The translations under genes and the position numbers were made by a program. Source: a virus (Duplodnaviria > Heunggongvirae > Uroviricota > Caudoviricetes > Straboviridae). From it: DNA of 64,000 nt. The stretch lies in IMG/VR virus record IMGVR_UViG_2974557979_000001, one strand, 5' to 3'. The notes under the pieces were generated by a model, which saw only the letters and a program-made list of their open reading frames with translations, did not search any database and had not been told where the DNA came from. Position 1 is the first letter of the stretch. Each line of letters opens with the position of its first letter. Positions 9,688-58,784 of the stretch are shown here, piece by piece.

Positions 9688-9759
9688 AAAAAGCCCTTGA
9701 CTCCGGTCGGGGCTTTGTTATATTGCATATCGAAACGTAAATCACTAAGAGAATATATT
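9688..9759 (+). promoter_or_regulatory. terminator-hairpin/early-promoter/leader cassette (PeSL-like)
   Basis: Hairpin AAAGCCC-TTGACTCCGGTC-GGGGCTTT with TTGACT inside, 17 bp spacer, TATATT, then leader gcATATCGAAACg. Confidence 0.55.
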
Positions 9760-18827: not shown

Positions 18828-19220
18828 ATGGGTGTAAATCTGAGGTTGCTATATAGCGATATAGAACCTAACATGCAACGAGATTGGAATAATGACGTAG
18901 CGGCTTCAAAAGGGGCCGCAGCAGTAAGAAATAGTTTGATTGGTATCGTAACCACGATCAAGGGTACACGTCCATTTGATAGTAACTTTGGTTGTGCTAT
19001 TAGTGATATGCTGTTTGAGAACATGAACCCTCTGACAGCGGAATCAATTAGAACTTCTATCGTATCTGCGATCCGGACATATGAGCCTAGAGTATATAAT
19101 CTTTCTGTTGAAGTTATTCCACAGTATGATGATAACTCAGTAACAGTAACCATCTATTACAGCATCATTGATGACCCGGATGACGTAGAGCAAATCAAAC
19201 TACAGCTTTCCGCATCATAA
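18828..19220 (+). CDS. 25: baseplate wedge protein gp25 (GPW/lysozyme-like fold)
   Basis: LYSDIEPNMQRDWNNDVA...GTRPFDSNFGC...LFENMNPLTAE...RTYEPRV...DDPDDVEQIKLQLSAS is collinear with T4 gp25. Confidence 0.9.
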   Translation: MGVNLRLLYSDIEPNMQRDWNNDVAASKGAAAVRNSLIGIVTTIKGTRPFDSNFGCAISDMLFENMNPLTAESIRTSIVSAIRTYEPRVYNLSVEVIPQYDDNSVTVTIYYSIIDDPDDVEQIKLQLSAS

Positions 19221-19225
19221 CAAAA

Positions 19226-19250
19226 AGCCCCTTCCTTTCGGTTGGGGCTT
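19226..19250 (+). terminator. rho-independent terminator
   Basis: GCCCCTTCCTTTCGGTTGGGGC plus T-run; the same hairpin occurs again at 57899. Confidence 0.6.
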
Positions 19251-19254
19251 TCTC

Positions 19255-20228: not shown

Positions 20229-20299
20229 AATGTATTCCTCATTGTTTTCGATAGAACCAATATAGCAAAAAGCCCCGACCGAAGTCAAGGGCTTTTTCA
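20229..20299 (-). promoter_or_regulatory. PeSL-like cassette (minus strand)
   Basis: Minus strand reads AAAAAGCCCTTGACTTCGGTCGGGGCTTTTTGCTATATTGGTTCTATCGAAAACAATGAGG; the same hairpin recurs at 37270. Confidence 0.5.
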
Positions 20300-37242: not shown

Positions 37243-37310
37243 AATGTATTCCTCTCAATTAGATGCACTCATAATAAAAAAGCCCCCGACCGAAGTCAAG
37301 GGCTTTTTGT
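37243..37310 (-). promoter_or_regulatory. PeSL-like cassette (minus strand)
   Basis: Minus strand AAAAAGCCCTTGACTTCGGTCGGGGGCTTTTTT...GAGAGGAATACATTATG; hairpin identical to the one at 20262. Confidence 0.45.
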
Positions 37311-49527: not shown

Positions 49528-49603
49528 GATATTTTCCTTTCTCTGTTTCGTTTCGATGTGTGTAATATAACAAAGCCCCTGCACTAATGCAAGGGCTTTT
49601 TGA
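49528..49603 (-). promoter_or_regulatory. PeSL cassette (minus strand)
   Basis: Minus strand CAAAAAGCCCTTGCATTAGTGCAGGGGCTTTGTTATATTACACACATCGAAACGAAACAGAGAAAGG: hairpin with TTGCAT-17-TATATT. Confidence 0.6.
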
Positions 49604-50518: not shown

Positions 50519-51042
50519 TTTGCATTCTCATACATAGTTAAAATTGCTTGCATATGTTCCGGTGATTGTGGAACCCCTGCAAAGTTCACTTTCAAAAAGA
50601 AATTCAACCGATCTTTTATGTTGCACTCATCGAGTCCAAGCGCTGGTAATGAAATGTTTTCAAAAGCACGTTGTTCATGTCTTTCCATTTCACCCCAAAA
50701 CAAACGGGAACCGTTAGGCATCGGTATTCCAATTTCATTGTTCCAGAATTTCATGATAGTTGTCAAGCGTTGTTTTCCGTCGATGACTTCTACCCATCGA
50801 GATTCGTTGAATTCACTATCAACCGCGATCGCAATGATACCACAAGGAAACCCAGTAATCAAAGTTTTCATGAAAGCATCTTGCTCTTTCTGCTTCCACA
50901 CGTAGGGCCGCTGATAGGACGGATTCAGATCCAGATCGTTGTTCTTGAACCAGTGAATGTAACTACCAACCATGATCGCATGATCGCGACTTTGGAAAGT
51001 TTTTAACTCACGAATACGGTTTCTTACAATTTCGTCTGTCAT
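50515..51042 (-). CDS. DUF262 / ParB-like nuclease-NTPase domain protein (standalone)
   Basis: SYQRPYVWKQKEQDAFMKTL...GFPCG...VIDGKQRLTTI carries the DGQQR-type signature of DUF262 (GmrSD N-domain family); no HNH/DUF1524 partner domain. Confidence 0.62.
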   Translation of the reverse strand: MTDEIVRNRIRELKTFQSRDHAIMVGSYIHWFKNNDLDLNPSYQRPYVWKQKEQDAFMKTLITGFPCGIIAIAVDSEFNESRWVEVIDGKQRLTTIMKFWNNEIGIPMPNGSRLFWGEMERHEQRAFENISLPALGLDECNIKDRLNFFLKVNFAGVPQSPEHMQAILTMYENAK

Positions 51043-51365
51043 TATAAAATCACCATCCAGTATATAATCGTAATCATAACCGCTACAGTGAAACATATTG
51101 CAGCGTACACCCGCGCATTATGAACCTGTGTTTTCAATTCTGCGATCTCTTGATCCTTTTCGCTTTCAAACTCTTCGCGAGTACCATAATACCCAGGATC
51201 GTTAGCAGTTGCCAATCTAACCGCATCTTTTTCAACCAGCGTTGCATAACCGCTTTTTATTTGTGTCGCCCCGTACCATCCACCCCGATCGTTGTTAATG
51301 ATCAGGTGATCGCCTTTTTCGTTATGTTTTGACTCACCAATTACAATAACCCGTTTACCATTCAT
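51042..51365 (-). CDS. hypothetical C-tail-anchored membrane protein
   Basis: C-terminal TM helix VYAAICFTVAVMITIIYWMVIL; ATGA overlap with the DUF262 gene. Confidence 0.45.
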   Translation of the reverse strand: MNGKRVIVIGESKHNEKGDHLIINNDRGGWYGATQIKSGYATLVEKDAVRLATANDPGYYGTREEFESEKDQEIAELKTQVHNARVYAAICFTVAVMITIIYWMVIL

Positions 51366-53947: not shown

Positions 53948-54012
53948 GATAGCCTCCTTTGTTTCGACAAGGCCAATATAACAAAGCCCCTGCACGAATG
54001 CAAGGGCTTTTT
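53948..54012 (-). promoter_or_regulatory. PeSL cassette (minus strand)
   Basis: Minus strand GAAAAAAGCCCTTGCATTCGTGCAGGGGCTTTGTTATATTGGCCTTGTCGAAACAAAGGAGG. Confidence 0.55.
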
Positions 54013-55509: not shown

Positions 55510-56205
55510 TTAAAATTTAAAAGTATCGAGCACTTTGCTCTTTAGTTGTTTCAAAGTACCTTCGTTAGTGATGATACTATCTCCAGGTTGAGGTGTCAAA
55601 CCTTTTTCCGTGGAATGTTCATCAACAATTCCGGTATCCTTTACAATAAACACAAACTTAGCACCTAAGCGTTTTAGGTATTTGTATTCGTGTTCTTGAC
55701 GACAGTCAGTGACCAGAAGATGGTTGTATTCGTCACCAGTATATTTATTGACGAATCTTTCCAGTGTGTAACGAACCCAAACCGTGTTATCATACTTGCA
55801 TACGATATCAGTTCCAAACACTTGCATCAAGCGTCTGATACTCCAGGGAGTATCGTTACTCATAATCAGGTTATCAATATCATCAGGACTATAGACAATA
55901 TTGTATCCACGTTCTTTGAGGATTTCAAGCCCGATTTTGAAAATATTTAGAACATCTTCATTAGACATCACAAGAGGTTTCTCTCGATCGCCTTTGTAAA
56001 AAATAGCATCCGGATCAGAATATTGTCCTTCAATCATATTGCGAATGTATGGTTTATCGTAACCATATCGCTGCATTGCTATTCTTAGCGTTCTTTTGAT
56101 ACCAAATGCCAGTGCTTCACACTGAACATCATTGTACGCCTCTTGAATAAATTTAGCAACCGTATCTTTACCAGTTCGCTTTTTTCCACTAATCACATAA
56201 ATCAT
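55510..56205 (-). CDS. 1: deoxynucleoside monophosphate kinase gp1
   Basis: P-loop ISGKKRTGKDT, SIRRLMQVFGTDI, VTDCRQEHE, ITNEGTL are collinear with T4 gp1. Confidence 0.9.
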   Translation of the reverse strand: MIYVISGKKRTGKDTVAKFIQEAYNDVQCEALAFGIKRTLRIAMQRYGYDKPYIRNMIEGQYSDPDAIFYKGDREKPLVMSNEDVLNIFKIGLEILKERGYNIVYSPDDIDNLIMSNDTPWSIRRLMQVFGTDIVCKYDNTVWVRYTLERFVNKYTGDEYNHLLVTDCRQEHEYKYLKRLGAKFVFIVKDTGIVDEHSTEKGLTPQPGDSIITNEGTLKQLKSKVLDTFKF

Positions 56206-56735
56206 TAGCTCATTCTCTTTTGAGAAGTGACTACTTTTCCGTCAATTTCAACTTCCATATGAAGGAAGCCAAAAGTTGCCATACACGTAACCGCTTCATC
56301 ACTATCGTTAGTATAACCCAATTCAACCTCACCCAAGTTTGTTGGGAAGGCACCATAAAATCTAAATGTGGCGATCGTTTTCATCTGGGAGTTATCCAGG
56401 ATATGCACAGCGAATGATTGCTTAGGATCATCCCACGCAACAGAGTTAAACTCATTGTAATCGTTTGTGCTCAACATCCATATGTAAATCCCAAGATACG
56501 ATCTCATTTCCTCATCGACTACAAAGCGGATCATCAAAGGATCAAACTCAAAAGCCGAACCAGGTACTTTACCTCGAACCATCATATTTGCAGGAATATC
56601 AACTGCTGGGAGGTTCATTGATGGTAGTGTAACCCCTTGAACTTGTAAAGTCAAACCTTTCATGTAACTGTTATCAGGAATATCAACCCGAAAGTTTGTA
56701 GGTGAGATTTGGTTTAAAATCATTTCTGTAGACAT
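56205..56735 (-). CDS. 3: tail completion/sheath stabiliser gp3-like
   Basis: 176 aa (same length as T4 gp3), located after gene 1 as in T4; CTAAATAG late-promoter-like motif upstream. Confidence 0.55.
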   Translation of the reverse strand: MSTEMILNQISPTNFRVDIPDNSYMKGLTLQVQGVTLPSMNLPAVDIPANMMVRGKVPGSAFEFDPLMIRFVVDEEMRSYLGIYIWMLSTNDYNEFNSVAWDDPKQSFAVHILDNSQMKTIATFRFYGAFPTNLGEVELGYTNDSDEAVTCMATFGFLHMEVEIDGKVVTSQKRMS

Positions 56736-56760
56736 AGGATCTCCTTTCCTCTATTTAGCG

Positions 56761-57080
56761 GGGAACGGGATCAAAGCGGCCTGACGGGGTAATATAAAAA
56801 TTTGAAGAAAATGCTTGACCTTTTAAAATCTTTGATCTATAATAATTATTAATTAAAATTTTATCAAAAAGATCTAACAAGATCAAGTAAAATTTAATAA
56901 ATAATTTATCAAAAAATTTTAGATCTGATCTTGAATTCATAAATTTTATGATCTATAATATATTAATATTTTATTTTATCATAAATTTTTATGAAGATCA
57001 ATACTTAGATCTAATAAATTTTATGCTTTTTCTGAAAACTTTTCCTTTACCCCGTCACTAAATACTGGTACTATGTTCCC
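56761..57080 (+). promoter_or_regulatory. AT-rich GATC-dense region with tandem consensus sigma70 promoters, flanked by inverted repeats
   Basis: IR GGGAAC...GACGGGGTAA (56761-56792) against TTACCCCGTC...GTTCCC (57047-57080); TTGACC-17-TATAAT at 56815-56843 and TTGAAT-17-TATAAT at 56931-56959; eight GATC in about 230 bp; repeated AAATTTTA and GATCTATAATA words. Confidence 0.55.
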
Positions 57081-57104
57081 ATATTGGAAATCAGGAAAAA
57101 CAAA

Positions 57105-57893
57105 ATGACTCACTTGAAAAAATTCAAAGAATTTCTGACCGAAGGTAAAACCCTCGCTCGTACCGTAGCACGTGGTCAACGCGCTAAAACTTCCGATAAA
57201 CATTCAATCGGTTTTCTTCACTTCAAACATGGTTCTGATTTCGAAGTTTTAGCACCGGATTCTCACGATCTGGCATACTTCGGTAAAAACATTGTACGTT
57301 TGAAAGGTATGACTACTGGTAAAGTTCAAGCGGCTTATGTCGATTGGGCTAAAGGTACTGTTTCTTTCTACAGTGGCAATCCGGATGATGATCTGGATTT
57401 CGACAAACCAGAAAAATTCAAAGCTGCTACTCTGTATGAAGAGGCGGAAGAAAATCTGGATCTGTATAACCAGTTAGCAGAAGATTTCGAAATCGAGATC
57501 CCTATGGATGAAGCTCTGGTGAAAGGTAAAGTTTACAAACTCCCAAGCAACGATATGCGTCTTCTGTACACTGGGCGTTCTAAAACTAAAGCAAGCGGTG
57601 AATATGCAGTGTTTACCGTAGTCGATGCTTCCGGCAAACCTCGCCTGGTATCTGGTAAAAAATTCACCCAGGAATATAAAGGCGATATGGTTTCTAAACT
57701 AGTTCTGGTTGAATCCGAAGATCTGAATGAAGCGGCTAAAGGCATTCGCGAAAAAGTTATTGCTGTGATGGTGAAACGCGGGTTTAACGAAAAAGATGCA
57801 GAAAAGATGGTTGACAAAAACCTGAAAGATGCTATGAAAGTTAGACCTGGTGCGACCCCTGGCAAACTTGCAGAAATAGTTAGCATCCTGTAA
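57105..57893 (+). CDS. hypothetical Lys/Asp/Glu-rich protein (262 aa), probably highly expressed
   Basis: Codon usage strongly biased to CGT/GGT/CTG/ACT/GCT/TTC/AAC; two consensus promoters plus a late-type CTAAATAC motif upstream; strong terminator downstream; inserted between gene 3 and gene 2, which are adjacent in T4. Confidence 0.6.
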   Translation: MTHLKKFKEFLTEGKTLARTVARGQRAKTSDKHSIGFLHFKHGSDFEVLAPDSHDLAYFGKNIVRLKGMTTGKVQAAYVDWAKGTVSFYSGNPDDDLDFDKPEKFKAATLYEEAEENLDLYNQLAEDFEIEIPMDEALVKGKVYKLPSNDMRLLYTGRSKTKASGEYAVFTVVDASGKPRLVSGKKFTQEYKGDMVSKLVLVESEDLNEAAKGIREKVIAVMVKRGFNEKDAEKMVDKNLKDAMKVRPGATPGKLAEIVSIL

Positions 57894-57898
57894 AAATA

Positions 57899-57926
57899 AA
57901 GCCCCTTCCTTTCGGTTGGGGCTTTT
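57899..57926 (+). terminator. rho-independent terminator
   Basis: GCCCCTTCCTTTCGGTTGGGGC plus TTTTT (same as 19226). Confidence 0.65.
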
Positions 57927-57929
57927 TGA

Positions 57930-58784
57930 TTAGTATTTGCTCCAGACTTTTTTCGCGCCGTAAGGTTTCCCTTTGGACATAAATTGCTGAGTCGGTAGCC
58001 AAACAGCTTTCGCCCAATCTTTAGGGGCAATCTCTGCTAATGGTGATTTGAGGTGTGATGGTAGATATGCTTTGATCATTTCTGTTGCGCCTCGCATACC
58101 TTTCACGTTACCCCAGTTAATTTTGAGTACAGTCTTGTTAGAGAGGCGTTTAGTGGATCCGTACCCTCGCTTCAATAACTCTTCTAAAAACTCCTGTCGT
58201 GCTCTGGGTGGCGCATAGTGCAAGTTCAAACCATAGAACACTAAGTTACCCGCTTTCGATCTTCCGGATCCTAAGAAAATGATCAGTGGAAATCTATCCC
58301 AATACGGCAGGGTGTCTTTATATTTTGCATCATATGCAAACGTGTACAGGCGACCCGTTGCTGGTTTTGCCACACGGTGTGTTTTGATACTGGTTTTGAT
58401 GAAATTACCAAACCATTCTGTTGAATCTTTCTGTCGCTTTGCCGCTGATACACCAACAGTGATCTTTTTCAGACTATTACGGAAATCGTTGATGATCTCG
58501 ATCCCGTGTTTTTTACGGTAGTCATTACGTTTTTTACGGGCTTCTGTCTCTGCGGAACGTCGTTCAATCTCATCATCAATCTGTTTTTTGTAACGATGCA
58601 TTGACTTTGTGAACGTTGCGTAGTTTAATCCCTCAGAATCGGCAAAACGTTTAGCAGAAACACCTTTCGTTCTTGCCTTACGGAATTTGATCCCCAGTTC
58701 AACCCAATCACTCAATTTGCGTTTGGGTGGTGCTTTGGGTTTATCCTCTTCCGCGATGATCTCAAACTCAAAAATAAAACTCAT
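57930..58784 (-). CDS. 2: DNA end-protector protein gp2
   Basis: MSFIFEFEIIAEEDK, WFGNFIKTS, GRLYTFAY, LPYWDRFPLI, FYGLNLHYAPP are collinear with T4 gp2. Confidence 0.82.
   Translation of the reverse strand: MSFIFEFEIIAEEDKPKAPPKRKLSDWVELGIKFRKARTKGVSAKRFADSEGLNYATFTKSMHRYKKQIDDEIERRSAETEARKKRNDYRKKHGIEIINDFRNSLKKITVGVSAAKRQKDSTEWFGNFIKTSIKTHRVAKPATGRLYTFAYDAKYKDTLPYWDRFPLIIFLGSGRSKAGNLVFYGLNLHYAPPRARQEFLEELLKRGYGSTKRLSNKTVLKINWGNVKGMRGATEMIKAYLPSHLKSPLAEIAPKDWAKAVWLPTQQFMSKGKPYGAKKVWSKY

Follow-up and report, generated by a model that had tools for sequence, protein, structure and literature searches.

The internal head proteins of the T-even bacteriophages are hypervariable and share 'only a conserved CTS', the capsid-targeting sequence (PMC3012670). 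The CTS, a leader of 10-19 residues, attaches internal proteins to the core of the prohead and is cleaved off behind L/I-x-E by the gp21 protease; within the leader, positions 4 and 7 (aromatic/hydrophobic) are needed for targeting, and positions 8 and 10 (I/L and E) for cleavage (PMC9026906). Krisch and colleagues described promoter-gene-terminator cassettes for adaptive genes in the T4-type core and linked them to shuffling at the internal-protein (IP) locus (PMC4122927). The T4 replication origins consist of a pre-replicative promoter and an A+T-rich unwinding element, which in oriE is joined to a promoter of the early kind; oriE, oriF, and oriG are all situated close to strand-switch points, and it is still an open question what marks out a T4-type origin and what turns it off (PMC3016281). 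Here we analyzed a cassette at positions 56,761-57,893 of a 64,000-nucleotide stretch of Straboviridae DNA (IMG/VR record IMGVR_UViG_2974557979_000001, hereafter the window), in which an A+T-rich island precedes an open reading frame (ORF) for a 262-aa protein. We think it probable, though far from assured, that this cassette, which runs opposite to the late genes 3 and 2 on either side of it, couples a gene for an internal head protein to a duplicated early-promoter island that fires in both directions.

Klebsiella phage Matisse (NC_028750; Slopekvirus, Straboviridae) matches the window at 100% identity, and more than 100 Slopekvirus genomes carry the region at ≥92% identity, mostly >99%. The 262-aa ORF (CPT_Matisse195; 57105..57893, plus strand) lies between two minus-strand genes, that for the tail completion or sheath stabilizer protein gp3 on its left (56205..56735) and that for the DNA end protector gp2 on its right (57930..58784), and is convergent with the latter. 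Genes 3 and 2 of T4 have a mere 106 bp of unremarkable DNA between them, compared with roughly 1.1 kb in Matisse; the segment is therefore an insertion relative to T4, as the original prediction had stated. A homologous gene also stands between gp3 and gp2 in the Pseudotevenviruses RB16, RB43, and GAP161 and in Pantoea phage Phynn. The ORF is labeled 'hypothetical protein' in nearly every record, and its product has previously not been annotated as an internal head protein anywhere.

The N-terminus provides the central evidence. Codons 1-13 (MTHLKKFKEFLTE; 57105..57143, plus strand) encode a capsid-targeting-like propeptide that ends in the gp21 motif L11-T-E13/G, where the slash marks the expected cut. 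The relatives begin with MKSFKELLSE/S, MKTFKELITE/S, MKNFKEFLNE/V, or MKQFKQFLSE/V, following the pattern MK[STNQ]FK[EQ][LFY][LIM]xE, and nearly all homologues keep this targeting sequence. For comparison, T4 IPI begins with MKTFKEF...ITE/A, and T4 IPII and IPIII begin with MKTYQEFIAE/A (read from NC_000866). The CTS positions 4, 7, 8, and 10 are all kept in the family, with F7, K8, and E13 invariant. The near-identical genome RCIP0008 carries annotations for a gp21-type prohead core protease, a scaffold protein, and gp68, and the N-termini of these proteins contain L-x-E sites (LLAE, LIE). The same genome holds a second CTS gene, RCIP0008_00023 (L007:18304-19143, minus strand; annotated hypothetical, PHROG 5268), whose highly expressed 279-aa product begins with MKSFKQFTESTLTE/A, resembling T4 IPI, and carries a Walker-A P-loop (GGAGSGKG) after the CTS. 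It is a candidate packaged enzyme, and its presence suggests that the CTS device is in use in Matisse.

Codon usage places the 262-aa ORF among the head genes. Its fraction of E. coli-optimal codons is 0.70, the third highest of 167 ORFs, and only the major capsid protein gp23 (0.82) and the scaffold gp22 (0.71) rank above it, which agrees with the high expression anticipated in the original prediction. That prediction had further named a virion internal protein or a decoration protein as possible products. The former is well supported by the CTS, by the capsid- and scaffold-like codon bias, and by the early and late promoters described below, and nothing was found to support the latter.

The protein belongs to a tiny and rapidly changing family. 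A search of 5.8 billion sequences returned 14 proteins, and 14 cluster representatives were found among 1.84 billion; the phage relatives are nearly all T4-like (Straboviridae). A Pfam search of the 262-aa protein gave zero matches, its PHROGs matches were confined to families of no assigned function, a sequence-profile search of the PDB returned nothing, and the genome contains no paralogue. Among relatives, the N-terminal domain (about residues 15-128) is joined to differing C-terminal parts, and the last 55 residues (PHROG 9411) also occur as free-standing proteins of 50-76 aa. Such a small family with swapped modules is in keeping with the hypervariability known for internal proteins. Codons 201-203 (57705..57713, plus strand), right at the edge of the variable C-terminal module, encode L-V-E, a second and nearly invariant L-x-E, adjoining a linker in which the structure model has a predicted local distance difference test (pLDDT) score <50 (residues 204-207). 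A further motif, L-A-E126, lies at the end of the N-domain. From these sites we infer that the prohead protease may divide the protein into two or three pieces of basic character, with isoelectric points (pI) of 9.1-9.9 for the putative fragments 14-110, 137-203, and 204-262. There is a precedent in T4 Alt, which gp21 trims at the C-terminus (PMC9026906).

The DNA upstream of the ORF is the most A+T-rich 300 bp of the window. The A+T content is 76.6% over 56761-57080 and 84.8% over 56800-57030 (231 bp), so that the value of >80% originally proposed for about 320 bp applies to the inner part and not to the whole. This DNA is a tandem duplication of a promoter module of ~116 bp, with module 1 at 56814..56929 and module 2 at 56930..57045 (direct repeats D1 and D2; spacing 116/115). 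Phage VAC13 (MZ322895) has an extra 28-bp slippage duplication within the tandem modules. The island is bounded by an inverted repeat, whose left arm (56761..56792) consists of GGGAAC (56761-66), a 15-bp spacer, and TGACGGGGTAA (56782-92), and whose right arm (57047..57080) consists of TTACCCCGTCA (57047-57) and GTTCCC (57075-80). TGACGGGGTAA pairs perfectly with TTACCCCGTCA over 11 bp, GGGAAC pairs with GTTCCC, and no second exact copy of the 11-bp repeat exists in the window. The arms are located just outside the promoters, one per divergent leader. Since the left arm lies outside the transcripts from the rightward promoters PR1 and PR2, the inverted repeat would act at the DNA level, if at all.

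Eight GATC sites (56834, 56871, 56881, 56922, 56927, 56950, 56996, and 57008) form a cluster at 56834..57011, and a ninth site lies outside it at 56769. Eight sites within 175 bp compare with 0.24 expected at matched composition, and none of 100,000 shuffles reached eight; the cluster is the densest of the genome. As many as 16 of the 35 G/C bases of the island sit inside GATC, and AGATCT occurs three times. Six of the eight sites are in or against promoter hexamers, in the forms GATC-TATAAT (twice), GATC-TTGAAT (once), and TTGATC (twice). The spacings (37, 10, 41, 5, 23, 46, and 12 bp) show no consistent helical phasing. Over the whole genome, GATC exceeds expectation 1.75-fold (1144 observed, 653 expected) and CTAG falls 7-fold short of it. 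A weaker cluster of 6-7 GATC sites in ~230 bp was seen in coding DNA near window 51000-51300 (50923-51310).

Four predicted promoters are arranged in the two modules. PR1 (TTGACC-17-TATAAT; 56815..56843, plus strand) matches the sigma70 consensus at 11 of 12 positions, with GATC abutting its -10, and PR2 (TTGAAT-17-TATAAT; 56931..56959, plus strand) matches at 10 of 12, with GATC abutting both its -35 and -10; each contains GATCTATAAT. The leftward promoters PL1 (56858..56886, minus strand), which faces PR1, and PL2 (56973..57001, minus strand) both read TTGATC-17-TAAAAT with the TG of an extended -10, and share the form TTGATC-17-TGATAAAAT. The predicted starts nearly coincide within each rightward/leftward pair, so the promoters stand face to face. 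PL1 and PL2 are supported by being kept in both modules and by a similar promoter upstream of uvsY. They point at gp3, gene 1 (a deoxynucleoside monophosphate kinase), and 57A, which would need promoters of their own because the bidirectional terminator of the cassette cuts them off from gp2 transcription. Taken together, the predicted promoters make the island a bidirectional early-promoter hub, one of three related ones in the genome. The GenBank record of KP27 already annotates PR1, PR2, and the bidirectional terminator. Its label 'putative middle promoter' for PR1 is doubtful: T4 MotA promoters have the MotA element roughly 19 bp before the -10, whereas TGCTT at 56811 is 27 bp before it. 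We also considered GATCTATAAT as a general feature of early promoters and rejected it, the typical early promoters here being of the PeSL (promoter-early stem-loop) type. Compact PeSL-type terminator-promoter composites of the form AAAGCCC-TTGACT-TCGGTCGGGGCTTT..TATATT occur five times in the window, at 9690-9717 on the plus strand and at 20268-20295, 37279-37306, 49572-49599, and 53983-54010 on the minus strand, and appear to be the standard early promoters of Matisse.

The late-type motif reported to follow the island also found a context. The late-promoter consensus in this genome is cTATAAATAc, and the variant CTAAATAC (57058..57065, plus strand) lies 40 nt upstream of the 262-aa ORF start, which is preceded by the Shine-Dalgarno sequence AGGAAA (57093..57098, plus strand). 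The same variant precedes gp3 as CTAAATAG (56751..56758, minus strand) and is also found before gp53, gp6, and the holin. Nine of the 17 copies of CTAAATA are followed within 90 nt by an ORF that has a Shine-Dalgarno sequence (those of gp53, gp6, the holin, an inh homologue, gp3, and the 262-aa protein among them), and by this distribution CTAAATA is a genuine late-promoter variant in Matisse. At equal distance from the homologous ORF, RB16, RB43, and GAP161 have AATAAATA and Phynn has CTAAATA. In the minimum free energy fold of the PR2 transcript (57026-57100, plus strand), CUUUUUCUG pairs with the Shine-Dalgarno region CAGGAAAAA; late transcripts from near 57072 would escape it, a situation reminiscent of the T4 lysozyme and soc genes. 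The fold does not outdo those of shuffled sequences (z -1.0) and is a weak lead. A bidirectional intrinsic terminator (57900..57927) is common to the 262-aa ORF and the convergent gp2. Its twin lies at 19226-19253, at the convergent junction directly after the gp25 homologue (18828-19220); the two had been called identical and agree at 27 of 28 positions. In all, the sequence features described by the original prediction are present, including the bounding inverted repeat, the GATC cluster with several AGATCT, and the two near-consensus promoters, and the observation itself is real. The tandem duplication, the leftward promoters, and the placement of most GATC sites at promoter hexamers go beyond what that prediction had noted.

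The whole genome (176.7 kb) was reconstructed from the near-identical RCIP0008 record (OR532802) and the window, which enabled us to place the island in context. Only three stretches reach ≥76% A+T over 250 bp: island A between gp24 and uvsY (L007:11772-12077 of RCIP0008), island B between rnh and gene 55 (L008:31179-31493), and the present one, island C, between gp3 and the 262-aa ORF. No other 100-bp windows of the genome are as unstable as these three (z 6.3, 5.7, and 5.0; next 3.5), among which island C ranks second (z 5.7). Over 90-145 bp the islands are 75-79% alike, and the genome holds no other sequence that resembles them. Words common to them are GATCTTGAAT, tGATCTATAAT, and TGATAAAAT; island B has cTTGATCtGATC..tGATCTATAAT and island A has GATCTTGAAT. 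The promoters of island A read into uvsY, with one antisense into late gene 24. Island B additionally contains a perfect 18-bp palindrome centered on GATC (CTACAATGATCATTGTAG). A shared edge motif, ACGGGG[ATG]TA, was dropped, as five occurrences against roughly three expected is about chance.

A different element of ~170 bp occupies the same three intergenic sites in RB16 (L002:1239-1509, L013:13086-13407, and L014:15750-16020), and it is also found at the gp3/ORF site in RB43, Phynn, and GAP161 (L003, L004, and L005). The RB16 element has outer inverted GC-rich repeats (GAGCGAAGCGA.. and ..TCGCTTCGCTC) and a conserved AT core, TTATATTTTATATATAGAGAAAA. Its inner stem covaries between phages, with compensatory changes at five of eight pairs and 97.9% of cells paired, and is followed in the Pseudotevenvirus and Phynn elements by an extended -10, TGnTATAnT. 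An Rfam search of the Matisse region and the RB16 locus gave zero matches. Element families at the same three sites in two genera, homogenized within each genome, argue for a position-specific function.

These observations can be joined into a putative course of events. The 262-aa protein would be made abundantly, from the two tandem sigma70 promoters early and from the CTAAATA promoter late. Its N-terminal 13 residues would serve as a CTS and dock it to the prohead scaffolding core. The gp21 protease would then cut after L-T-E13, probably also after L-V-E203, and perhaps after L-A-E126, and the matured pieces would remain in the head and enter the host along with the DNA. To judge by the exchangeable C-terminal module, the protein may act against host defences or in host takeover. 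With GATC in or against the promoter hexamers, a phage or host Dam methylase could modulate the promoters.

Several points weigh against this interpretation. The predicted mature protein has a mass of 27.6 kDa and a pI of ~7.9, whereas the T4 internal proteins are basic and of 8-20 kDa; only the putative cleavage fragments are basic, not the whole mature chain. The Matisse N-terminus is three residues longer than those of the relatives. We found nothing covering the 262-aa gene in the literature on virion proteomics or transcriptomics of Slopekvirus and Pseudotevenvirus. For the island, promoter-like matches number 18 where shuffling the 4 kb around it gives an expectation of 11, such matches being common in A+T-rich DNA. 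A promoter hub also leaves unexplained both the perfect GC-rich inverted repeat and the fact that GATC takes up close to half of the G/C bases in the island.

The size and charge of the protein, the lack of any fold or family assignment, and strong sigma70 promoters such as early genes typically have would also suit an abundant product that is never packaged, such as an early host-takeover or nucleoid-associated factor, its CTS likeness being functionless. We regard this as unlikely. The pattern M-K-x-F-K/Q-E-F/L-I/L-x-E is most unlikely to have arisen by chance right at the N-terminus, and nearly every member of the family keeps it; a late promoter is present in Matisse and relatives, and the codon bias equals that of head structural proteins. 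Moreover, early promoters also drive the T4 internal-protein genes: ipI, ipII, and ipIII each have GTTTAC-17-TAnnAT directly upstream, and therefore strong early promoters on a head-protein gene are not odd. The layout of promoter, gene, and terminator placed within the core likewise agrees with the adaptive-gene cassettes of PMC4122927. For the island alone, a small mobile element (MITE-like, that is, resembling a miniature inverted-repeat transposable element, or a homing footprint) inserted upstream of the ORF could account for the perfect 11-bp terminal inverted repeat around a 276-bp segment, for its absence from the related islands A and B, and for the inverted repeats that also bound the three Pseudotevenvirus copies. 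This seems highly improbable, as there is no target-site duplication (the flanks are GCGGCC and CTAAAT), the repeat is found nowhere else in the window and has only unrelated partial matches in the genome, and no transposase or homing endonuclease neighbors it in Matisse. The absence of empty-site genomes among the >100 Slopekvirus genomes is evidence against recent mobility, and the fact that both genera have their copies at these three syntenic positions looks like function.

Compatible with the promoter-hub reading, and not exclusive of it, is a role of the island as an R-loop-type origin like T4 oriF, oriG, or oriE, with the sister islands as other origins. An early promoter would fire into easily unwound A+T-rich DNA, and the hybridized transcript would prime the leading strand. 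We entertain this tentatively, as something we would not expect but take seriously. A candidate pre-replicative promoter is present at the sequence level only (the 11/12 and 10/12 matches above), and the DNA downstream of PR1 and PR2 is 85% A+T. The three islands being the least stable windows is in favor of it, as is the location of island A immediately upstream of uvsY, since the 5' end of uvsY is where oriF stands in the T4 record, with the note that its 'primer RNA is same as transcript for gene uvsY'. In addition, island B coincides with one minimum of the cumulative GC skew and island C is 2.5 kb away from the other, the antisense promoter of island A into gene 24 has no coding purpose, and the three-copy element of RB16 at the same sites argues for a conserved non-coding function. 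However, this case is one of position and composition, and a strict T4 match is seen only for island A: in T4, 3.3 kb separate oriE from the gene 3/2 junction, and oriG falls within gene 34, at a distance of 2.2 kb from rnh. The skew minima also simply follow switches in transcription direction, the RB16 sigma70 promoters are downstream and not upstream of the AT core, and strong promoters with AT-rich UP-like flanks would suffice for the low duplex stability. The origin named in the original prediction is thus backed circumstantially, by the three unstable islands and by island A at oriF, and is weakened by the ~3 kb between island C and the oriE-equivalent position. A Dam-methylation-sensitive switch, tying early transcription or origin firing to the first replication round, is rather unlikely. 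The fully methylated parental and the hemimethylated new DNA would differ in promoter strength or SeqA binding. Promoters with GATC in the hexamers (IS10 pIN, dnaA P2) and SeqA sequestration of oriC are established precedents. The excess of GATC and its placement at promoter hexamers, the recurrence of the GATC-promoter words in islands A and B, and the retention of all sites in KP27, Rpl1, and VAC13 speak for such a switch, as does a phage-encoded Dam methylase (annotated in RCIP0008; PMC5219037). On the other side, Slopekvirus DNA bears an uncharacterized modification (PMC5219037), the compared genomes are 92-99.7% identical so that site conservation says little, and the sites have no consistent helical phase. 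The positionally equivalent Pseudotevenvirus elements have no GATC cluster, and GATC is therefore not needed for any function they share. A DnaA box (TTATNCACA, ≤1 mismatch) was sought over 56761-57104 without a match, so a DnaA/oriC-like mechanism is not supported. Of the SeqA/Dam-regulated or origin-like DNA suggested at the outset, the GATC cluster and the phage dam gene are in agreement, and the likeness to oriC is not borne out. That all three islands are Slopekvirus origins whose firing is gated by the Dam-methylation state, possibly via host SeqA, is quite unlikely.

Two further observations concern the island itself. A 61-aa ORF within it (56755-56940, minus strand), which some records appear to list as a hypothetical protein (e.g. 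VAC13 ORF26), is probably no gene, being of low complexity and overlapping the promoters. The assemblies of phiKp_13, phiKp_15, and phiKp_16 (LC768475, LC768478, and LC768479) begin or end in the tandem modules (56911-56985 equivalents), and a fourth, VAC66 (MZ612130), has the island within ~220 bp of its start; these ends probably reflect repeat-driven breakage and slippage, not a physical genome end.

If the protein is packaged and injected, it would be a cargo so far missing from the annotation of a phage genus that is in wide use for Klebsiella phage therapy, and, with its exchangeable modules, a candidate for an anti-defence effector. The leader of 13 residues could then load foreign proteins into Slopekvirus capsids, as has been done with T4. 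The three related islands are concrete candidates for replication origins and early-promoter hubs outside T4. Dam-gated islands, if real, would represent oriC-style once-only control in a T4-like lytic phage, with the three-copy inverted-repeat elements of the Pseudotevenviruses as an alternative origin design.

Compared with known systems, the island shares with E. coli oriC and the dnaA promoter its dense GATC in A+T-rich DNA and the GATC within promoter elements, and island words such as GATCTATAATAAT resemble the oriC 13-mers GATCTnTTnTTTT. It differs in having no DnaA boxes and no clear phasing of GATC, and in belonging to a lytic phage with its own replisome. Like the PeSL cassettes, the Matisse cassette has a strong sigma70-like promoter after A+T-rich DNA and stem-loop terminators around a non-essential adaptive gene in the core, and its repeated regulatory DNA could mediate recombinational shuffling. 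Unlike the compact PeSL composites of Matisse, the island is 10 times longer, GATC-rich, and carries promoters on both strands, and no stem-loop of the PeSL terminator kind was found at PR1 or PR2.

The resemblance to T4 oriF, oriG, and oriE lies in a predicted pre-replicative promoter followed by A+T-rich, easily unwound DNA, in a position within late-gene territory near strand-switch points, in the use of an early promoter as at oriE, and in the sister island A at the exact oriF position upstream of uvsY. The T4 oriF and oriG use MotA-dependent middle promoters and are unrelated in sequence, whereas the islands are related to each other and have sigma70-consensus promoters; for the GATC clustering we know of no T4 counterpart.

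The closest parallel is provided by the T4 internal proteins. The 262-aa protein has no sequence or fold likeness to them beyond the propeptide, and it is larger (T4 internal proteins have 95-193 aa), multi-domain, and near-neutral overall. It also differs in an extra conserved internal L-x-E, which suggests processing into several pieces, and in being transcribed opposite to its neighbors with a dedicated bidirectional terminator, its packaging and injection being putative. Common to both are a propeptide pattern that ends in the gp21 motif L/I-x-E, a strong early promoter of their own directly upstream, and very high expression, here predicted from codons. The genomic neighborhood, 57B-57A-1-3-2, is likewise shared, T4 ipI being located five genes from gene 2 (ipI-57B-57A-1-3-2). 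Finally, the 262-aa protein belongs to a narrow and fast-evolving family with module swapping, as is found at the T-even IP locus (PMC3012670, PMC4122927).

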